A stretch of DNA of 64,000 nucleotides from a virus: IMG/VR virus record IMGVR_UViG_3300042923_001459, positions 32,001 through 96,000 of that record; one strand, 5' to 3'. Below, piece by piece: positions 4,748-32,987 of this stretch (its first letter is position 1; each line of letters begins with the position of its first letter). A program made the position numbers and the translations under genes. The notes beneath the pieces were generated by a model, which was not told where the DNA came from, did no database searches, and saw nothing but the letters and a program-made list of their open reading frames with translations.

Positions 4748-4984
4748 TTATTTTTTGAGTCTACTTCTCTTATTAGAGCTCATTAATTGATGTTCAGCAT
4801 AGTCAATTGGTTGTTCAAATAACCATTGCTGCGAAATTGAAGGTCCATATGTTTTTTTTGTTATCTCATCTTTATTATCAACTATTTCTTCTGGATTTCC
4901 AAAAAGAACGGGTACTGCTGAATAACCAGTACCCATACCGCCGGATTCATCGGCAATTTTTTTAAGTCTTGTTTTAGTTTCCAC
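4748..4984 (-). CDS. hypothetical protein
   Basis: RBS GAGGTG; begins KTRLKKIA and ends SRLKK. Confidence 0.65.
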   Translation of the reverse strand: METKTRLKKIADESGGMGTGYSAVPVLFGNPEEIVDNKDEITKKTYGPSISQQWLFEQPIDYAEHQLMSSNKRSRLKK

Positions 4985-5003: not shown

Positions 5004-5426
5004 TTACGAAAAACCTAAGAAGCTAGGTTTCTTGAGTAGTAAATTATGATAATAGTCATTTTTACCTTTGTTACGTGGATTAGATACAAATTGCTCTAAT
5101 TGCTTTTGAAGTACTGGTATTTGTTTTGCAAACTTCTCAGCACGCGATACTCCTTTAAAAGCAGTTAATAAATCTGAATACATTCTAAATGCAGATTTAA
5201 CATCTGGACCATCATAAAAAGAACTAGTGTTTGTATCATAATTAATATAAACTTGATACCATGGGTTCCAGTTTACAACTCTTGCGGATAGACCAACAAT
5301 GTCTCCACTTCCAAGAATTTCCGTATCAAGATCCATAGCGGGTGATGCTATCTTAGTCATCGTGTCTATATTGATTTTTGCCTCTTCTGATTTTTTCAAT
5401 TTTCTTAAACGACTCACGTGTATCAC
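5004..5426 (-). CDS. hypothetical protein
   Basis: ORF in operon. Confidence 0.6.
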   Translation of the reverse strand: MIHVSRLRKLKKSEEAKINIDTMTKIASPAMDLDTEILGSGDIVGLSARVVNWNPWYQVYINYDTNTSSFYDGPDVKSAFRMYSDLLTAFKGVSRAEKFAKQIPVLQKQLEQFVSNPRNKGKNDYYHNLLLKKPSFLGFS

Positions 5427-11959: not shown

Positions 11960-13180
11960 CTATTTTGGTGTAATTTGTGAAAACTGCCAGTTGTCCGGTA
12001 CAAAATACTGTCTTGCAACTCTTTGTATATCTTCTTTTGTTACTGCTTCGATACCACTGAGATAATCGTCAGGTTCAGTGGATGTTTCATCTATAATAGC
12101 ATTTCCGATGTAACTATTGATTGATGATGGTTTCTCAAGATTGATAATGTGAGAACCGCGAGTATATGCTATAGCGCGTTTCAATTCAATATCACTTACA
12201 GGTTCATTTCTTAAACGTTCGAATTCTTCAATAACAGTATCCTTAACTGCTTCAATCTTGCTTGCATCTAAACCAGTATAACCAAGAATCATTCCAGAAT
12301 CGCGAAGCGCATAATAACTAACACGAACTGTGTAAGCTAAACCACGTTTTTCTCTAATAAGTTGATATAATCTTGAAGAAGAACTGCCGCCTAAAATAAC
12401 ACATGCAATATCCATAGCGTAATAATCAGAACTATTAATCGATGGACCAAATAAACCCCAAGCAAAGTGAGCTTGTTCAATGCTTCTTTCAATCTCTATC
12501 GTGTTTGAATCTAAAATATCAGGTTCGAATTCTTCTTTTTTAAATTCATTAGGATTTTCTTGAAAGTCTTTTGTGTATTCTTCCATAAATTTATTGATAG
12601 CTTCATCATCTATCTTGCCAGTTGCTACAACAAATATATTGTTAGGTTGGTAAAATTTATTCTTGAAATCAATTAAATCTTGTCTTGATATCTCAGCAAC
12701 TTGTTTTGGTGTTCCACCAACTAATTGTCTGCTTGGAAAACTCTTATGCATTGCTGTAAAAAGCATGTCTGTAACATGTGAAGAAGTATCATCTGAGTAC
12801 ATCTTGAGTTCTTCTTGAATCACCGTTCGTTCCAATTCGACTTCTTCTTCAGGAATAGTAGAATGAAATATGATGTCAGATATTACATCTGCTGCTGTTT
12901 TCCAATTTTCCGCTGGCACTGTAGCAAAGTACCTAGTGTGTTGAAAACTTGTCTCAGCATTAATGTAACCGCCTATTGATTCAATTTCTTCCATAATTTG
13001 CTGTGAATTGCGTGAATCCGTTCCTTTAAATACCATGTGTTCAATGAAATGAGCGATACCAAATCTATCTGTTTCATCGTATGAACCAACTTTTACATAA
13101 ATACTAAATGTCATTGTTTTTGCAGACTCGATTTTTTCTGTATAAACATCGAGACCATTTGGAAGTGTTTTCTTTTGCAA
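11960..13180 (-). CDS. M16 family zinc peptidase (insulinase-like)
   Basis: Inverted zinc motif HFIEH in GIAHFIEHMVFKGT; LGGSSSSRLYQLIREKRGLAY. Confidence 0.92.
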   Translation of the reverse strand: MQKKTLPNGLDVYTEKIESAKTMTFSIYVKVGSYDETDRFGIAHFIEHMVFKGTDSRNSQQIMEEIESIGGYINAETSFQHTRYFATVPAENWKTAADVISDIIFHSTIPEEEVELERTVIQEELKMYSDDTSSHVTDMLFTAMHKSFPSRQLVGGTPKQVAEISRQDLIDFKNKFYQPNNIFVVATGKIDDEAINKFMEEYTKDFQENPNEFKKEEFEPDILDSNTIEIERSIEQAHFAWGLFGPSINSSDYYAMDIACVILGGSSSSRLYQLIREKRGLAYTVRVSYYALRDSGMILGYTGLDASKIEAVKDTVIEEFERLRNEPVSDIELKRAIAYTRGSHIINLEKPSSINSYIGNAIIDETSTEPDDYLSGIEAVTKEDIQRVARQYFVPDNWQFSQITPK

Positions 13181-15511: not shown

Positions 15512-17179
15512 TTAAACTCTATACATTCTTCCAGTTGTAGGTCTTGGCATTCTACTTTTTCCACCAAATTCAGCTGCAAAATTAGCTAACGCATCAGAAC
15601 AACAAGCATCATCATGTCCACCATTTGGAGCTTCAATTCTTTTATTAACTGTTTGACGAACTTCCATCTCTAAATCTTTCCATTCACCAATCATTTTATG
15701 ATAAAAACCACCTAAATCTCTATTGCCAGTTTTATTAATTACATCTTTAGAAGGATATTTGAACCTTCCAACTTCTATATCATGCTTTATTTTTGCGAAC
15801 ATAATATTTTTCATATTCATACCAGAACGAGTATAGGAATCAGAAGCATTAAATGTGATACCTTCTAATTGTCTTAACCCATCTTGATCTCTAAGAATAT
15901 CAACAATTGGTCTACCTACACCAGTAAAATCAGCAAAAATTGACTCTACTGGAAATTTAGGTCTTGGTCCGCCAAACAATTTTAAAATTTCTAATCTTTG
16001 AGTATTAAAGCTCTCACCATGCATCTCCATAGCAAATACCTTTTCTCTTAATCCATTTGGTTGAACTCTCAATACTGAAATATGAGTATAATCGGCACCT
16101 GATGCGGCAGAACCTGCAAAGTCAATACCTGCAACGTATTTTTCTCCATAGTTGCCACTTTCTTGCCATTCGTGTTCTCCAGAGATCAATGTATCCCATT
16201 CCGATGTACTTAGGAATTGGCCAGCTCCATCAACAAATTCAAGCATATATTGTGTCTTAAAATCCTCTACTGACATTTCTCCTTCAGTCCAAACTTCTGG
16301 ATTTTTAGGGAAATATTGTTGCTTTAAAGGCTTAGGCATCAAACGAAGAACGTAAGCAGAGTATGGTCTCATTTCTTCTGGATTTTTGTAATCTGGAAGA
16401 TAAGTAGCATCCAAAGCCCATAATTGAGGACACTCTGTCCAGTCTTTTCTGATTTGAACAAATCCTTTTGGATTTTTAATTGAATCATATGCAATACCAG
16501 GTTGAAATGATTCCCAGAAATGATTACGAAATTTAGGTGTACCAATTTTAATAATTTTAGCATTTGTTGCACCACCCATCGGAACAATACGCTCAGATAC
16601 GGTGTAATTGGAAATTTTTTGTGCTTCATCTAATACAATTATATCAAATGTCAAACCCTCAATATTTGATTGGTCGGAACCAGAAACTGCCATTACATAA
16701 GAGCCATTGCTAAGTTCAATTTTACCTTTTGTACATTTTACAAGTTTATTGTTGAGTTTTTCTTCATTCATTTGAAAGAAGATAGCTGTACGTCCAACAT
16801 TAAGTTCTGCTTGCTGAATACGAGGGGTAAAGATACCAATTCTCATGTTTGGATAATTATCTAATAGGTAACCGGTAAATGATGCAATTGATTCTGTTTT
16901 ACCAGCTTGTCGAGCCATGAGGGCTGCAACAGAACGAATTTTAGGATTACATACAGCTCTAATTAACTCTACTTGATTAGCATGTAATTTCTGTTTATTT
17001 GGTGGCAAATGAGCTCTAAGAACTCTATGACAATATTCAACTGGATCCATTTTTGTAAGCATTTTTTTAAATATATAGCCACCTAAATCTTCACCATGAA
17101 TTTTATTTTGTTTCATAGCATTAAGTTGACCTTGAATAGCATTTGTATCACTTTTAAGTTTCGATATGTCGAAGAACAA
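15512..17179 (-). CDS. terL: terminase large subunit
   Basis: Walker A ARQAGKTE, Walker B IIVLDEA, coupling motif GTP, nuclease GIDFA and HDDACCSDA. Confidence 0.9.
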   Translation of the reverse strand: MFFDISKLKSDTNAIQGQLNAMKQNKIHGEDLGGYIFKKMLTKMDPVEYCHRVLRAHLPPNKQKLHANQVELIRAVCNPKIRSVAALMARQAGKTESIASFTGYLLDNYPNMRIGIFTPRIQQAELNVGRTAIFFQMNEEKLNNKLVKCTKGKIELSNGSYVMAVSGSDQSNIEGLTFDIIVLDEAQKISNYTVSERIVPMGGATNAKIIKIGTPKFRNHFWESFQPGIAYDSIKNPKGFVQIRKDWTECPQLWALDATYLPDYKNPEEMRPYSAYVLRLMPKPLKQQYFPKNPEVWTEGEMSVEDFKTQYMLEFVDGAGQFLSTSEWDTLISGEHEWQESGNYGEKYVAGIDFAGSAASGADYTHISVLRVQPNGLREKVFAMEMHGESFNTQRLEILKLFGGPRPKFPVESIFADFTGVGRPIVDILRDQDGLRQLEGITFNASDSYTRSGMNMKNIMFAKIKHDIEVGRFKYPSKDVINKTGNRDLGGFYHKMIGEWKDLEMEVRQTVNKRIEAPNGGHDDACCSDALANFAAEFGGKSRMPRPTTGRMYRV

Positions 17180-25366: not shown

Positions 25367-25750
25367 TTATTTTTTTATATCCATAATTTTATCAATCATT
25401 TCTTCAGAAACTGCATCAGTTATGTCAAGCTCAATCTCAACACCATTTTGCACAAATAGTTGTACAGCAATTGTTACGCAATTAGAACAAATAAGGGGTT
25501 CATTTTTTTCACTTAAAGAAACTACTGGTTTTTCGTTAGTTCCAATAGTTCCACAAAATGAACACGAATGAAATGAACTTTGCAAACCTTCAAGTCCAGC
25601 AGTTCCTCCATATAGTGGTAAAATTTGTCCATCTTCAAATTCAACAAAAGTCATTTGTCCATCTTGTTTGATGTCCTTTACTGGTTGTTTCATTAATATT
25701 GTAAGTTCTTTTATTCTTTCCTCATCTAACATATCACATCTTCCTTCCAA
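25367..25750 (-). CDS. protein with ClpX-type C4 zinc finger
   Basis: CSFCG...ICSNCV matches the ClpX N-domain pattern; no AAA+ domain. Confidence 0.7.
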   Translation of the reverse strand: MEGRCDMLDEERIKELTILMKQPVKDIKQDGQMTFVEFEDGQILPLYGGTAGLEGLQSSFHSCSFCGTIGTNEKPVVSLSEKNEPLICSNCVTIAVQLFVQNGVEIELDITDAVSEEMIDKIMDIKK

Positions 25751-26018: not shown

Positions 26019-26774
26019 TTACTTGTTGTTAAAAGTTTTAATAAAACATCCAGTATATTCATTGACGCTACTATCATTGCGTGTTATTTTAGCAGAAATA
26101 ACGTCATAATCCAAAACATCACTAGTGTTTAAAATAATATTAACTAAATCAGTAGAAATTACATATGAAATTATCTTTGAAAGTTTAACATCAGTATTAT
26201 CATCAAAAACAACAATTAATTTGTTCGTAATTAAATCAAATCTAATGTTGCCAAAATGAGTTCCGTCCTTAACAATATCTGCTTCTACTATAGATGTTTT
26301 TAATATATCATATTCAAAGACTTCATCATTGTAAACAAGGAATTTACCAATAATATCTGAAGCATTACCCTGAATATTTAATTTAAAATTCTTAAAAAGA
26401 GATAAATCAATACTTTTTAAAGAACTTTCATCCTGTAGCACTGAAAATCCAATATTTATTTTGTTATTTTCAATCACTGAAGCAAAAATTCTTGAAAAAG
26501 CTAAACTAGCACAATTAAAACACCAGTAAGTATTTCTAACTTCATCAATTAAAAGCTTATCTAAAAATCCATCAACATTGTTTTTGTAGTAGAAATCTTG
26601 CGCTCCTAAATTTTGATGTTGTGCAAATCCCCATCCATTATGAAGAGATAAAGGTGATAATATTCCTTGTTTCATTTGACTTTCTACACCTTCACAAAAA
26701 ATGCAAACAATTGCATCTTCACCATTTGCGTTAGCTGCGATCAAGTTTCTACTTTGTATAGGTTTTGAAATCAT
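26019..26774 (-). CDS. hypothetical protein with two CxxC motifs
   Basis: CIFC...CFNC. Confidence 0.6.
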   Translation of the reverse strand: MISKPIQSRNLIAANANGEDAIVCIFCEGVESQMKQGILSPLSLHNGWGFAQHQNLGAQDFYYKNNVDGFLDKLLIDEVRNTYWCFNCASLAFSRIFASVIENNKINIGFSVLQDESSLKSIDLSLFKNFKLNIQGNASDIIGKFLVYNDEVFEYDILKTSIVEADIVKDGTHFGNIRFDLITNKLIVVFDDNTDVKLSKIISYVISTDLVNIILNTSDVLDYDVISAKITRNDSSVNEYTGCFIKTFNNK

Positions 26775-27088: not shown

Positions 27089-27187
27089 GAACTACAACTC
27101 CTTTTTTTATATAGATAAAATAATTGATTTGCTTAATAATAACAAAAAAAATCAAAAACCCTACACAACGTAGGGTTATACATATTG

Positions 27188-29743
27188 TTATACAACTGAT
27201 TTGTTCTTCTGCCTAAAGTCTGTTAACTTCGGTAAGAGCTCGTTATACCATTTTTCCTCATCTTGATGATTATAATCTCTCTTAGTATTGTTGAGCGTAA
27301 TTTCGGGGAACCAACCCATAGCAACAGCCTTGTTAAATGTATATTCTGCTACTGGGTTTATGAATGTTCTACCAAGTCTCCAATTTTGATATTGAGAATT
27401 GTATTCTTCTGAAAATGTTTTATATAAGAGCATAGCAACTCCATTTTTTCTATATTGCTCTTGTACTTCAACATAATTAATGTAGATGTATTCATGTTCA
27501 GGATAGATTTCATACTTCATATCTCCAAGCATTTCTCCATCTCTAAAGATCTCAATTTTACGTCCTCTATTATTAATTTCTTTTTTCTGAACATCAATTG
27601 GACCAACTGCAACTTCGGATGCAAATTTACGCAATCTGTAATCATTACCTTTAGCCCAATATTCAGGACCTTTATACTGTTCTGGCAACTTATTACGTAA
27701 GTCATTCCAAACTTCGTCTGGGTTTGTTTTAAGGCTTTTATTATATCGATCTCTCTTCACATACTTATCATCTATTGAAGTTTCATTTATCCAACCTAAA
27801 CTTACAGCTTTTCTAAATGCATATTCAGCTATTGGATTAATATAGTATCTAGAAACCGGCCAATCACTAAAGTTAGAATTGTAGATTTCACCAAACTTTT
27901 TGTAAAGTAGTTGTCCAACACCATAACTTCTATATTCTTCCTTTACTTGGACTTCATCTACGTGAATAATATTGCTGCCAGGTGGTAAATCCCTAAGACT
28001 TCTATTGTTTTCGTGAATATATTTAGGGTTTTCAACATTGTAAAAAGCTGAAAAATACATATTTCCAATATTAATACCATTAGATAATTTAGCGTTTATT
28101 GAATAGTCAACTTGTTTTTCGGCACCAACATAATCTCCATCTTCTTCTGACTCAGTATAAGATAGTACAATGTTTCTCATATCAATTTCTGACAAATCAG
28201 CTAATTTAAATAGTTTTTTCAATCTAGAACTACCTCTATACATTGGAGGAAGTTTCTTTCTCAAATCCTTCCAAAGCGTTTTATCTTTTTTATCATAATT
28301 GCGCTTTAATTTATCATCATTTAAAGCCCATCCAGAAATCCACCCTAATGAAATAGCTTTACGATAAGAATATTCAGCTATAGGGTTATGAAAATCTACA
28401 GAAACTGGGAGACGATCAAATTGTTGTTGATAAATTTCACCAAATTTCTGAAGAAGTAATTGACCAATACCAAGGCTTTGATATTGTTCAGTAACTTTAA
28501 TTAAATCGATATGAACTTTATCTCTTCCTGCATAGGCACTATTTGTATCATAAACGTAAGCTGTAAATCTTATGCTTCCCACTTCTTCACCATTAAGTTG
28601 TGCATAAACCATGTGGGTGTCCATTGTTAAGCCATTGTCATAAGTTGAACTACCAATAGAACCTCCATCTTCAAGTATTATGCCAGACCTAATATCGGTC
28701 ACGCTTAGATCTGAAGCTAGTTTACGTAAATCTTTTTTCATACTAGCCTCCGGCCCTCTAACATGTTCTGGAAGTTTTTGTCTTAAATCATTCCAAAGCG
28801 CTTTATTTTTTGTACTATAGTCACGAATTATCTTTTCTTCAGAAAGAGCCATATCTGGAACCCAGCCAAGAGATACTGCTTTTCTAAAGGAATATTCAGC
28901 AACAGGATTTACAAATTGTCTACCAACTGCCCAACCATTAAATTGTTCAGTGTACATCTCACCAAATTTTTTGTAAAGCATTTGGCCTACGCCAGCTCCT
29001 TCAAAATATTGTTGCACATACAAAAACGAAACATATAATTCTGGTTCAGTATAATCTTTAGCTTCTTCTTTTGGAACATACTTTGAAAAATCCAAATAAC
29101 CAATTTGACTTCCAGCGTACATAGCGGAAATTTCATAACTAGATCTAAGTGTTTGTCCCCAGTCTTTTTCTTCACTAGGACCAGAAACTTCAAATTGAAT
29201 ACCTTGTCGTAAGTCAATTTTTTCATCATCACTTATGGCAATTTTTTTCAATCTTGAAAATCTACTAGCATGTAAATTTTCTGGTAATTTTTGTTTTAAG
29301 TCATTCCATTGTTGCTCTTTTTTATCATCATAACTTCTAGTTGTTCTCTCTGGAGTATAAGCTTGATTTGGTACCCAACCTTGATCTACTGCTTTTTTAA
29401 AAGAATATTCAGCAATGGGACTCTCAAAGTGTCTTTCAACTTCCCAGTCCATAAAGTTTTGGCTATACACTTCACCAAATTTTTTGTAAAGCATACCACT
29501 AATTCCAGTTCCACGATACTCAGATTCAACTTTGATATAAGCAAGGTATAGAATATCTTCCTCGTTGCCATTTTCATCTAGTTGCGAAACTTGATTGAAA
29601 TCTAAAGCGCCAATTTCGCCTCCATTGTACATAGCTTCAATTCTATGCATAGTCATGTAGTATCCATCTTCAGGATCACTATCACTACCAACATTAGGTG
29701 AGTAATCAATTCTAACTTTTCTAATGTCAAACTGATCAGACAT
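27188..29743 (-). CDS. five-unit tandem GNAT acetyltransferase-like protein
   Basis: Five motif-A segments (YRGTGIS, FEGAGVG, YQSLGIG, YRSYGVG, YRKNGVA), each followed by an NPxAEY.F.KAV-type block. Confidence 0.8.
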   Translation of the reverse strand: MSDQFDIRKVRIDYSPNVGSDSDPEDGYYMTMHRIEAMYNGGEIGALDFNQVSQLDENGNEEDILYLAYIKVESEYRGTGISGMLYKKFGEVYSQNFMDWEVERHFESPIAEYSFKKAVDQGWVPNQAYTPERTTRSYDDKKEQQWNDLKQKLPENLHASRFSRLKKIAISDDEKIDLRQGIQFEVSGPSEEKDWGQTLRSSYEISAMYAGSQIGYLDFSKYVPKEEAKDYTEPELYVSFLYVQQYFEGAGVGQMLYKKFGEMYTEQFNGWAVGRQFVNPVAEYSFRKAVSLGWVPDMALSEEKIIRDYSTKNKALWNDLRQKLPEHVRGPEASMKKDLRKLASDLSVTDIRSGIILEDGGSIGSSTYDNGLTMDTHMVYAQLNGEEVGSIRFTAYVYDTNSAYAGRDKVHIDLIKVTEQYQSLGIGQLLLQKFGEIYQQQFDRLPVSVDFHNPIAEYSYRKAISLGWISGWALNDDKLKRNYDKKDKTLWKDLRKKLPPMYRGSSRLKKLFKLADLSEIDMRNIVLSYTESEEDGDYVGAEKQVDYSINAKLSNGINIGNMYFSAFYNVENPKYIHENNRSLRDLPPGSNIIHVDEVQVKEEYRSYGVGQLLYKKFGEIYNSNFSDWPVSRYYINPIAEYAFRKAVSLGWINETSIDDKYVKRDRYNKSLKTNPDEVWNDLRNKLPEQYKGPEYWAKGNDYRLRKFASEVAVGPIDVQKKEINNRGRKIEIFRDGEMLGDMKYEIYPEHEYIYINYVEVQEQYRKNGVAMLLYKTFSEEYNSQYQNWRLGRTFINPVAEYTFNKAVAMGWFPEITLNNTKRDYNHQDEEKWYNELLPKLTDFRQKNKSVV

Positions 29744-29762
29744 TTATTACACCCTCTTTTGA

Positions 29763-30251
29763 TTAAGAATATTTAAGTTTTCTTTTTAGTCTTTTAGCAC
29801 CTCTATATTGTTCAGGCACCTTTTCTCTTAAATCTTGCCATTGTTGTTTTTGTTGATCGTCGTAATTTCTATTTACGTTGTTTTCATCTAAGGCTGAAGA
29901 TGGTATCAATCCACCAGAAATTAAATTTCTAAATGCTAATTCAAATTCTGGATCGTGAAAGTTTAAAATTACCTTCCAACCCGTGTAATTAGCTTCAAAT
30001 TCCTTACCAAATTCATCCATTAACATTTCTTCTAAATCATAATCTCTGTATTTTTCACTAATAAGACATTCATCTACGGATAAAACACCTTTAGATGCTT
30101 CTGTAAATTCAACGTGACCAACTTCTTTGCCGTTATAGATAGACGAAATTCTATGATCTTTTGAACCAAAAGTACCTTGATGATCAAAATAAATTTGAGC
30201 TTGAAACTGTTCTATGTTTGACGGTGCTGCAACCTTTCTAAGTTTACTCAT
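29763..30251 (-). CDS. single degenerate GNAT-like unit (MSKLRKVA...)
   Basis: Homologous to neighbouring repeats; ATG at 30251 has RBS AAGGGTGA and overlaps the upstream gene end; start revised from the track. Confidence 0.7.
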   Translation of the reverse strand: MSKLRKVAAPSNIEQFQAQIYFDHQGTFGSKDHRISSIYNGKEVGHVEFTEASKGVLSVDECLISEKYRDYDLEEMLMDEFGKEFEANYTGWKVILNFHDPEFELAFRNLISGGLIPSSALDENNVNRNYDDQQKQQWQDLREKVPEQYRGAKRLKRKLKYS

Positions 30252-32406
30252 TTTTATCACCCTTATCCCTATAATCTTTTCTTTCAATACTTTTCTTAAA
30301 CTTCTTTTTCTCTTTTGCTGGTAACCAATCAAATAAATCTTTAGCAATTTGTTTTTCATGTTCATCATATTGACGCGCTATTAAATCATCATTATATGCA
30401 GTTTCAGGGATATTTCCCTTATCGACTTCTTCTTTAAATACATATTCTGCTATAGGGTTTGCAAAAACTTGAGCAACTGGCCAATCCATAAAATCTTGCT
30501 TGTAAATTTCTCCAAACTTCTCATATAATTTCTTGCCAATTCCATAACCTCTGTACTCACTATTCACAAGAACGTTGTTTACATATAACATTTCATCATA
30601 ATGCTTGTTTTCAAGAGAAGTATGAACATCTTTAGCTGTTACATTATGAAATTCTGAAAAGTGCATGTAACCAATTTGAGAACCATAATAATCACAATAA
30701 ATTTCGTGATCAACTACATGATCTGCTCCATTCTTGTTTTCTTCTCTTGGGATATTTTGAACATCAATTTCTATGTGATTCCATTCAATGTCTGGTTTAT
30801 CATCTTTTTTTTCTTCACCATCATATGAGTCAGAAACATAATTAACTGCATTTTCTTTTTTGAGCAATCTTTTTGTCAATTTAGCCCAAGTCTCAGGGCC
30901 CTTTAAATTGTCTGGAAGTTTATTTCTTAAATCGGTTATTGTTTGTGAATCATAATTTTTATAATCCCTAGTGATCATTGGTTCAGTTAATGCTGATTCT
31001 GGCACAAAACCTTTTGAAACTGAATTTCTAAAAGCGTATTCAGCTACTGGATTCATAAAATGCCTTTCAACAGGCCAACCATTAAACTTTTCACTATAAA
31101 TTTCTCCAAATTTTTTGTAAATTTCATACGCTAGACCTTGATTTTGATATTTTGGATCAACCTCAAGTTGAATAATTTCAATATATTTTCCATTAGTATC
31201 AGCAGTGAAGGCTAAGAATCCAGCGTGATCACCATTTACAAGCAAAGTAATGTCATTTGTTGAACTAGTTCCCCAATCTTCAAAGAAATAGGTTGTTTCA
31301 ATATTTTGTTCCTCTGATTTTCTAATCATACGAAGTCTTTTAATTTTTGACCATGTTTCAGGACCTTGAACATGTTCTGGTAACTTATTGCGTAAATCTT
31401 TTGCTAGATTTCTTTCAGTATCGGTATATACTCTTGCAATGTCATCTTCTTGTAATGCTTCTTGGGGAACCCAACCTAATCCAACAGCTTTTCTAAATGA
31501 ATATTCTGCTATAGGGTTAATAAAAAAACGTTTAACTTTTGTGCCCATATATTTTTGTGAGTAAATATTTCCAAATTCTTTATACAATAATTGCCCAATT
31601 CCTAAATTTCGATATTTATCATCAACGTCTACTGAATCAATTTCAATATGATTATCGCTTCCGACTATTTTAAAGTCCATTTCTCCAACTTTTTGTCCAT
31701 TCAATTTAGCGGTAATGTAATTATGATAATTCCAATTGGAGAATTCAAATTGTATATTTCTTAAATCAACTTTTTCTTCTTCAGCTGTTTTTAGAAGTTT
31801 AATTTTTTTCAGTCTTGATTGAATTTCTGGACCACGATATTGTTCTGGCAATTTTTGTCTTAAATCTTGCCAAAGTTGTGTTCTATTATCGTTTTCATCT
31901 AGTGGTTTATTGTATCCTCTATTGATATATTGTTCAGTTAACGCATTTTCACTAATTAATCCATTTGCAACCGCTTTTCTAAATGAATATTCTGCGACTG
32001 GATTTACAAAGTATCTAGCAACAGGCCAACCGTTGAATTGTTCATTGTAGATTTTTCCAAACTCTTCATATATCTTATAGCCAATTCCAGCCTGTCTATA
32101 TTCTTCGTTTACTTCAACATTGTTTACATATAAAGCACGATCAACAATATTGTAGTCATCTGGACCTGGCTCTCTTTCCATCAATATCTCATATGGAACG
32201 TTCTCAACATCTATGAAATCCATGTATCCAACTTGTGTTCCGCTTATTGTAGTAATTGTAATTTTATGTTGATTCATTGAGGTGACACCAAATTCTGATT
32301 GAGCATCTGCGAATTCATCAGAAACTCTCACCATATGATTCACTGCTAGATTACGTAAATCATCACCTGTATCTGATGCTTTTTTTTCCATCATCCTATA
32401 GTCCAT
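30244..32406 (-). CDS. four-unit tandem GNAT acetyltransferase-like protein
   Basis: Motif A YRQAGIG, YRNLGIG, YQNQGLA, YRGYGIG; conserved NP(V/I)AEY blocks. Confidence 0.8.
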   Translation of the reverse strand: MDYRMMEKKASDTGDDLRNLAVNHMVRVSDEFADAQSEFGVTSMNQHKITITTISGTQVGYMDFIDVENVPYEILMEREPGPDDYNIVDRALYVNNVEVNEEYRQAGIGYKIYEEFGKIYNEQFNGWPVARYFVNPVAEYSFRKAVANGLISENALTEQYINRGYNKPLDENDNRTQLWQDLRQKLPEQYRGPEIQSRLKKIKLLKTAEEEKVDLRNIQFEFSNWNYHNYITAKLNGQKVGEMDFKIVGSDNHIEIDSVDVDDKYRNLGIGQLLYKEFGNIYSQKYMGTKVKRFFINPIAEYSFRKAVGLGWVPQEALQEDDIARVYTDTERNLAKDLRNKLPEHVQGPETWSKIKRLRMIRKSEEQNIETTYFFEDWGTSSTNDITLLVNGDHAGFLAFTADTNGKYIEIIQLEVDPKYQNQGLAYEIYKKFGEIYSEKFNGWPVERHFMNPVAEYAFRNSVSKGFVPESALTEPMITRDYKNYDSQTITDLRNKLPDNLKGPETWAKLTKRLLKKENAVNYVSDSYDGEEKKDDKPDIEWNHIEIDVQNIPREENKNGADHVVDHEIYCDYYGSQIGYMHFSEFHNVTAKDVHTSLENKHYDEMLYVNNVLVNSEYRGYGIGKKLYEKFGEIYKQDFMDWPVAQVFANPIAEYVFKEEVDKGNIPETAYNDDLIARQYDEHEKQIAKDLFDWLPAKEKKKFKKSIERKDYRDKGDKNE

Positions 32407-32987
32407 TGTTCCTCCGCCTTTTTAAAGTTTTGGCCCCGCGAGTTTGAGACCCTGAAGTCTGAGCCCACATCCATTAGTCTTATTCTATATACTTTTTCTT
32501 TATTTCTAAATTCTATTTATTTTAGCTTTTTTCCACAATTCACCCTTTTAGCCTTGATGCACTCCACGCGAGCGAGCTGAAAGCGAAGCGAGAGGCCGGA
32601 GGCCTGGGGTATTTTGAGTCTCGGGACTCGCGATAGAAGAAAGAGTAGAAAGACAGCTTTATTGTCTCCCTTAAGGTTACATGTTTATTATACAAAGTTC
32701 TGATCGAGACAGTAAAAATGGCCGCTTTCGCGGCCAAAAGTTTATTTTTTCTTGTTGTAAAAAAATTGTGTCGTTGAAATAATTCCACCAAAGCAAAAAG
32801 ATAAAACAAGCAATGGCTCAATTTGTAAAACGCTGCCTAGAACACAAACAGTAGCTACGGCGCTAAAAGCGCTAAATGAATCAAATCCTTGCAGCAAACC
32901 GGATAATTTGAGCATTTTCAATATCCCCTTCTAAGGTTCTTTATAAATTCTATACAGAAAAGCATATTTTTTTATTACATATTTTAA

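Follow-up and report, generated by a model that had tools for sequence, protein, structure and literature searches.

In phage T4, Alt and IPI-III share a capsid-targeting sequence, a short N-terminal leader common to unrelated, fast-evolving cargo. Among the genes with this leader are host-modifying transferases, such as the ADP-ribosyltransferase (ART) Alt, and the cargo loci are hyperplastic. In the polyvalent proteins of phages and conjugative elements, effector domains such as GNAT and ART have been proposed to be delivered together with the DNA and released by proteolysis (PMC5512222). Phage GNATs are known from other settings as well: Rac of phiKMV-like phages targets the alpha subunit of RNA polymerase for acetylation (cited in PMC7824862), and gp678 of Bacillus phage G is annotated 'acetyltransferase' (Table S1, 10.1101/2024.12.16.628780). 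Here we describe an array of ten GNAT units, distributed over three genes (A, B and C) and joined by a recurrent basic peptide, in a 64,000-nucleotide stretch of IMG/VR virus record IMGVR_UViG_3300042923_001459. This stretch, hereafter the window, covers bases 32001-96000 of a 108.6-kb virus contig whose genes lie nearly all on the minus strand.

The basic peptide, which we call the tag, recalls the T4 leader but differs from it in that it ends in K-h-A/S and not in the gp21 cleavage motif L/I-x-E. It also occurs between domains and at C-termini, with packaging and cleavage being putative in the present case, and it is found in the G-like lineage, which does not belong to the T4-like phages and has a small capsid protein of the HK97-like type. 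The four and five GNAT domains of genes A and C are comparable to the 2-15 effector domains per polypeptide of the polyvalent proteins. Those proteins, however, combine unlike domains and usually embed a peptidase (MPTase), whereas the strings described here are homotypic, contain no peptidase and have a defined linear junction motif; an insert in the homologue P0005 is the sole non-GNAT case. Rac, a phage GNAT that takes over a host machine, represents the likeliest kind of activity predicted for the array units, but it is a single-domain early protein whose likeness to them lies at the superfamily level. Finally, gp678 has three units in one gene, compared with ten units in three genes here.

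No description of the repeat structure or linkers of gp678 was found in the literature, and neither gp678 nor cleavage-site data were found in the mBio 2017 and Viruses 2021 papers on phage G. The 2025 multi-omics paper refers to gp678 only as 'acetyltransferase', and its particle proteomics detects many non-structural proteins. Since T4 capsid-targeting leaders and polyvalent proteins are already known (PMC5512222; PMC7824862), the original prediction of this locus, made from the sequence, went too far in suggesting that no such system had been described. What is new is the homotypic ten-unit array, the shuffling of its cassettes, a basic tag other than L/I-x-E in a non-T4 lineage and a possible link to an M16 peptidase. 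To our knowledge, no megaphage other than phage G has been cultivated, and the majority of the ~700 phage G genes are unexplained. With the tag, one could read from sequence which proteins of the G-like lineage are processed and possibly injected, and since phage G can be cultured the idea is open to a direct and cheap test. The array illustrates how a phage shuffles, fuses and splits effector modules at a fixed seam, and its single units are candidate new host-targeting acetyltransferases in Bacillus and Lysinibacillus. The M16 link, if true, would provide a prokaryotic-virus parallel to mitochondrial presequence processing.

GNAT units and their shuffling

The original prediction had proposed ten homologous units arranged 4+1+5 over the three genes, and this was borne out by the open reading frames (ORFs) and by one unit profile, which matches all ten units (143-207 aa each) at E 1e-47 to 1e-68. 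A search of the 108.6-kb contig with the unit profile found no further copies. Pairwise identity among the units is 20-43%. Pfam searches of genes A and C gave scores of 77.1 and 59.0 bits for PF00583 (cut-off 20.7) and of 49.4 and 39.5 bits for the minimal GNAT family PF14542 (cut-off 30). PF13508 and PF13673 likewise exceed their curated cut-offs in both genes, and the families matched are thus Acetyltransf_1, _7, _CG and _10. PHROGs matches of the array genes carry the label 'acetyltransferase'. An AlphaFold model of unit A2, built from an input alignment of 41 sequences, has a predicted local distance difference test score (pLDDT) of 93.6 and shows four strands, the motif-A helix, beta5, alpha4, a short strand and two extra helices. 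Foldseek matched this model to GNATs only, and in a VIA search, which is independent of Foldseek, the 50 best matches were all GNAT enzymes (Z 7.7-9.8, 76-124 aligned residues). Since the Pfam scores, the A2 model and the structural matches all point to the same fold, we conclude, on sequence and model, that the units are GNAT domains, as had been expected.

The predicted unit core lacks the alpha1-alpha2 arm, like PF14542/YjdJ, there being no helices between the four strands that precede alpha3 in the A2 model, and YjdJ (5i0c) aligned to the model across its full length (Z 7.9). In each unit, the core is followed by a conserved helical extension, DLRxKLPExxRGPE, and the sequence NPxAEYxFRKAVxxGW resembles what we take to be GNAT motif B. 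The acetyl-CoA pyrophosphate-binding motif A (R/Q-x-x-G-x-G/A/S) was found in nine of the ten units, as originally described, unit B being the exception. The contrast that had been noted between conserved C-terminal and variable N-terminal halves was confirmed: in pairwise comparisons the acetyl-CoA part (residues 55-136 of unit A2 and their equivalents) averages 43.5% identity vs 23.0% in the N-terminal part, whose length ahead of motif A varies from 55 to 102 residues.

Alone, unit B has no Pfam match, yet it matches the unit profile at 1e-54. Its motif A is degenerate (YRDYDLE), with loss of the glycines, and the alpha4 Tyr is lost as well. The same motif-A degeneracy occurs in its orthologues P0021 and P0031, with which it forms a clade of 97% support in a quick unit tree. 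Because these residues are lost and the motif-A loss is shared by the orthologues, unit B is probably a conserved pseudo-enzyme.

When 1.8 billion cluster representatives were searched exhaustively with the profile, the array family proved to be small, with 64 representatives at E up to 1e-10, including forms of one, two, three and five units. Members that are named or lie on long contigs come from compost and metagenome contigs of up to 476 and 558 kb. According to the unit profile, phage G has three units, IMG/VR contig L002 has 3+1 and IMG/VR contig L003 has one; no homotypic string of GNAT modules larger than the present array was found for the family in the libraries searched. In the quick tree, which was based on 86 units and on an unfinished tree search, seven of the ten units cluster with units of other phages, and A2, A3 and C2 are without a close partner. 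The first unit of gp678 is of the A4 type (58% identity) and its last is of the C5 type. P0009 combines the A1 and A4 types and P0002 the types C1-C4-C3, showing that the order differs between phages. The A4 and B types, which belong to separate genes in our contig, are fused in P0013 and are encoded by single genes (P0017 and P0021, respectively) on a shared 3.7-kb contig. Because order and fusion state differ across the phages in the tree, we conclude that the ten units, as classified by sequence, are old, individually conserved types that have been recombined, fused and split at their linkers. By the same comparisons, the locus holds at least ten distinct mini-GNAT modules of ancient divergence, arranged as cassettes whose copy number varies.

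Two observations were made alongside these searches. A family GNAT unit at G003:C1:16077-16550 (-), recognized at E 1.7e-45, is interrupted by one TGA and two TAA codons and could be decaying or, alternatively, read through; a TAA-suppressor tRNA has been reported for phage G (PMC12484599). In addition, five metagenome proteins of 1438-3303 aa (P0041, P0045, P0055, P0056 and P0061), on contigs of up to ~124 kb, contain 4-8 GNAT-like stretches with a repeated YRRHGIAT. These giants are unrelated to the array family.

A basic tag at the junctions and on other proteins

A motif of the form [S/K/D]-[R/L]-[L/R]-[K/R]-K-h-[A/S] is present at all seven junctions of genes A and C, that is, at every place for which a basic linker had been quoted. 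In the homologues it occurs in every junction, at times as 2-3 tandem copies. Many single-unit genes open with the motif, and orthologous units in relatives are separate genes that start exactly with it. Substitutions within the motif are conservative at the protein level, different tags use different codons and the DNA upstream of them is unrelated, which argues that selection acts on the peptide. The same features, together with the internal and C-terminal copies, led us to reject the tag as a DNA-level element or as an artefact of translation starts. We conclude from these alignments that the junction peptide is a genuine selected motif and not a casual linker.

A two-unit model is consistent with a flexible connection at this point. 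Each domain is predicted with a pLDDT of 88, the predicted template-modelling score (pTM) is 0.52 and residues 155-157, just after the motif, fall below a pLDDT of 50; no confident inter-unit packing was predicted in this model. As modelled, the units are beads independent of each other, and a floppy hinge follows the motif.

The tag is not confined to the array. In our contig, the strict motif occurs six times, compared with ~0.07 expected by a rough estimate; three copies are in the array and three in the head module, the latter all reading RLKKIA and each standing behind a good ribosome-binding site. An apparent 273-aa 'polyprotein' next to the protease was discarded as an ORF-extension artefact, its real start being MTKNTRLKKIA. 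In order to count tags in phage G, a five-residue pattern derived from the linkers was applied to ORFs of at least 50 aa in the whole phage sequence. Twenty-five ORFs start with the tag, vs two for a reversed-pattern control. Tagged ORFs make up 7/68 in the head region (1-40 kb) vs 18/660 elsewhere, a 4-fold excess (Fisher p 0.006). The proteins found with the pattern include gp10, gp17, gp20 and gp38 of the head module, gp20 adjoining the prohead protease, as well as gp675; variant tags were found by eye at the starts of gp9, gp13 and gp21. All tagged starts have good ribosome-binding sites, and the tags are retained in a second G-like contig, G002. No general excess of tags was detected in a distant relative of 55% GC that has no M16 gene.

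Other tagged proteins look, by sequence, like conflict effectors. Two tagged phage G proteins gave weak PARP/ART matches (E 0.01-0.02, below the cut-off) and one gave a SLOG match at the cut-off. In the homologue P0005, residues ~393-610 form a weak Tpt1/ART-like insert (E 0.005) between GNAT units, with tags on both sides. By analogy to T4 Alt, the tagged PARP/ART-like proteins may be ADP-ribosyltransferase cargo. The tagged phage G ORFs L019:5994-6467 and L029:6709-7356, with weak PARP/ART-fold matches, begin M(R/K)RLIKK(S/G)N-x-SFFHGT. A different start is found in LR745208.1 (L034-L053), an uncultured 485-kb phage with a related capsid protein and no M16 gene, in which at least six ORFs begin MT(T)LRSKLIRLAH-x-(N/D)P-x-LR (for example, records 351838, 226068 and 351543). 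This shared start could represent either a paralogous family or another shared leader.

Proposed processing of the array and alternative readings

The reading that we favour, with about as much confidence as doubt, is that of a cassette array of mini-GNATs in which the basic peptide is a leader or processing signal, at which the strings would be cut into single acetyltransferases. It is based on the independent beads and on the free interchange of fused and split states. Each freed enzyme would acetylate its own host target during takeover or counter-defence, and the catalytically dead unit B would serve as a binding partner or decoy. Following the T4 Alt/IP model, processing could take place in the procapsid or en route into it, and the M16 peptidase of the head module, which is MPP-beta-like, might make the cut, much as the mitochondrial processing peptidase (MPP) splits tandem precursors. 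A broader proposal is that G-like megaphages use a general processing code, in which a basic, presequence-like peptide on the N-termini of dozens of phage proteins and on the seams of effector polyproteins is read by the M16 peptidase or the prohead protease, such that a shuffled set of single GNATs is loaded into the huge capsid and injected and ART-like effectors in relatives are also released. This would amount to an independently evolved, non-T4 counterpart of the capsid-targeting sequence and would mirror the processing of mitochondrial presequences; we regard it as unlikely.

The M16B peptidase is a candidate for removing the basic tag by analogy to its closest solved relatives, which are the bacterial processing protease 3hdi (E 2e-63) and MPP beta subunits (E ~1e-40). 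As with MPP, the proposed substrates have basic leaders, here at N-termini and junctions, and a basic residue lies 2-3 positions ahead of A/S in the tag; the pattern [RK]-K-h-[AS] is compatible with the MPP-type R/K at -2/-3, the position of the cut being putative. Besides removing basic leaders, MPP cleaves the tandem precursor Arg5,6 internally, at a presequence-like site (PMC8734313). In the phage case, unlike that of MPP, both an import step and an alpha subunit are missing. For the prohead protease homologue, sequence searches of Pfam and the PDB gave no match, and its only label comes from PHROG, 'head maturation protease'. The major capsid protein is reportedly processed by the prohead protease, and since no motif was found in the capsid protein, the prohead protease is disfavoured as the reader of the tag.

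Several points weigh against processing in the head. If capsid processing is as reported, the prohead protease probably has another specificity than the tag. Co-occurrence of the M16 gene with the tag was seen only among close relatives, and the link between this enzyme and tag cleavage is one that we infer purely by analogy. Outside the 1-40 kb head region lie 18 of the 25 tagged phage G ORFs. The sole promoter-like site of the array is of the host sigma-A type, with no hint of late expression. Moreover, terminal units end in a related basic tail, so that the motif sits at C-termini too, and about half of the first units, including that of gene C, are without an N-terminal motif. Thus, the cleavable, head-packaged polyprotein of the original prediction, processed and possibly capsid-targeted, receives partial support from sequence and models: the GNAT folds, the selected junction motif and the independent beads are in its favour, and the motif-free capsid protein is not.

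The C-terminal copies and the missing N-terminal ones are as compatible with a helix of structural or binding function as with a cleavage site, raising the possibility that the proteins stay whole as multi-headed acetyltransferases in which the basic helix is a functional part of each unit. Such a helix could bind nucleic acid, a membrane or a partner and thereby tether the enzymes to, for instance, DNA, ribosomes or tRNA, with fusion raising the local concentration or setting the stoichiometry. Consistent with this, each unit is modelled with a C-terminal amphipathic helix that ends in the motif, terminal and stand-alone units retain the motif at their C-terminus with nothing after it, and acidic unit cores (pI 4.5-5.9) alternate with basic tails (+2 to +6). 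Metagenomes hold other large proteins with 4-7 GNAT domains, and a tandem GNAT protein has been solved (2wpw). However, whole multi-headed enzymes leave unexplained why the same peptide stands directly after Met in ~25 unrelated proteins, why linkers occur in 2-3 tandem copies and why fused and split forms interchange at exactly the motif, and the two-unit model shows no confident packing between units. We consider this alternative somewhat unlikely.

Alternatively, the array could derive from once-separate genes whose tags function only at a free N-terminus, for instance as a degron or adaptor signal for the phage ClpXP or as a stability signal, the internal copies now being neutral spacers. 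Stand-alone orthologues do start with the tag, and the A4 and B types are found both apart (here) and fused (P0013). Phage G encodes ClpP and ClpX (PMC12484599), and a ClpX zinc-finger protein is encoded 1.4 kb downstream of the array. Neutral spacers are nevertheless difficult to reconcile with the retention of all seven internal motifs among units of only 20-43% identity, which indicates selection on the internal copies, with the multiplication of the motif in homologues and with its presence at C-termini. We know of no published class of ClpX signals that the tag would match. On balance, we find relic tags distinctly improbable.

Least probable of all is that the units are not host-takeover protein acetyltransferases but act on small molecules (antibiotics, polyamines or nucleotide sugars), aminoacyl-tRNA or, Mom-like, DNA bases, or are mostly non-catalytic binding modules: GNAT substrates cannot be read from sequence, acetyltransferases for aminoglycosides, streptothricin, polyamines and sugars are among the structural neighbours and the unit B type is clearly inactive by sequence, but ten conserved paralogue types with hypervariable acceptor halves and ART-like tagged neighbours fit macromolecular targets better, and the neighbouring gene encodes an Xre-type helix-turn-helix (HTH) protein and no antitoxin-like partner. 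A GNAT toxin-antitoxin pair of the TacT/AtaT type was rejected on the grounds that this neighbour is an Xre-type HTH (PF01381) and that no DUF1778 was found.

Source contig and gene layout

The contig is collinear with both ends, right and left, of Bacillus phage G. Identity to the corresponding phage G protein is 91% for the capsid protein, 89% for the HTH regulator, 84% for the portal, 80% for the prohead protease homologue and 78% for the terminase. Given this collinearity and these identities, the contig is, by sequence, a fragment of a G-like megaphage. A megablast search of the GNAT locus against the phage collection returned zero matches, phage G being found by protein search only. The locus is syntenic with gp678 and is flanked by homologues of gp677 and gp679, the latter being the downstream Xre-type HTH gene (89% identical to gp679). 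The features of the locus and of the head module are listed in Table 1.

Table 1. Positions in the window of the array genes, their units and tags, flanking signals and head-module genes
Feature	Position	Strand	Remarks
Gene A, 720 aa, four GNAT units	30244..32406	-	ORF call, Pfam, unit profile; ribosome-binding site GGAGG before ATG
Unit A1	31786-32406	-	
Unit A2	31318-31785	-	
Unit A3	30847-31317	-	
Unit A4	30247-30846	-	
Junction tag A1/A2, SRLKKIKLLKTA	31783..31818	-	
Junction tag A2/A3, KRLRMIRKS	31315..31341	-	pLDDT <50 hinge at tag end in two-unit model
Junction tag A3/A4, KRLLKKENA	30847..30873	-	A4 orthologue P0017 is a separate gene and starts MKRLIKKKGA
Gene B, 162 aa, one unit	29763..30251	-	starts MSKLRKVA; own ribosome-binding site
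Gene B N-terminal tag, SKLRKVA	30228-30248	-	
Gene B basic C-terminal tail	29766-29795	-	
Gene C, 851 aa, five GNAT units	27188..29743	-	ORF call, Pfam, unit profile
Unit C1	29240-29743	-	
Unit C2	28718-29239	-	
Unit C3	28199-28717	-	
Unit C4	27620-28198	-	
Unit C5	27191-27619	-	
Junction tag C1/C2, SRLKKIA	29237..29257	-	
Junction tag C2/C3, DLRKLA	28715..28732	-	
Junction tag C3/C4, SRLKKLFKLA	28199..28228	-	
Junction tag C4/C5, YRLRKFA	27620..27640	-	
Terminator upstream of promoter-like site	32719-32736		strong hairpin
Promoter-like site TTTACT-18-TATAAT	32687..32716	-	~280 nt 5' of gene A; consensus match only
Terminator-like hairpin and T-run	27157..27177	-	11 nt past gene C stop; closes three-gene unit
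Terminase gene	15512-17179		M16B gene few kb downstream, within head module
M16B zinc peptidase, phage G gp2 homologue	11960..13180	-	HFIEH intact; PF00675 and PF05193 match
Head-module small protein, gp9 homologue	5004..5417	-	begins V-SRLRKLKKS
Head-module small protein, gp10 homologue	4748..4984	-	begins V-ETKT-RLKKIA, ends ...SRLKK

Two points of the first description were corrected. The middle gene had been started at 30368, and its start was corrected to the ATG at 30251, which overlaps the stop of gene A within ATGAGTAA. Gene C begins MSDQFDIRKV and has no motif at this end. A programmed frameshift or read-through joining genes A and B was rejected, as gene B is in the +1 frame with its own ribosome-binding site; an A AAA AAT run was also rejected as the frameshift site, since a -1 shift would run into stops. 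The promoter-like site ahead of gene A and the terminator-like hairpin after gene C suggest that the three genes form one transcription unit.

Between the promoter-like site and gene A lies a GC-rich leader of ~280 nt, and an Rfam scan of the 860-nt region 5' of the array gave no credible match. A small hydrophobic ORF of ~57 aa with a good ribosome-binding site (window 32744-32914, -) precedes the terminator upstream of the promoter-like site. On the other side of the array, the stand-alone ClpX-type C4 zinc-finger protein is a gp683 homologue (window 25367-25750, -), its assignment being a weak Pfam match (E 4e-4). The gp680 homologue (window 26019-26774) is half-length, with 251 aa vs 486 aa in phage G, and gp681, a 'virion structural protein' in a phage G table, is without a counterpart in the window. 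Upstream of the array promoter region, the non-coding segment 32988-33255 of the window contains ~9 copies of a CTATAG-centred palindrome, TATCTATAGATAG, a cluster that, from its sequence, could be operator- or iteron-like.

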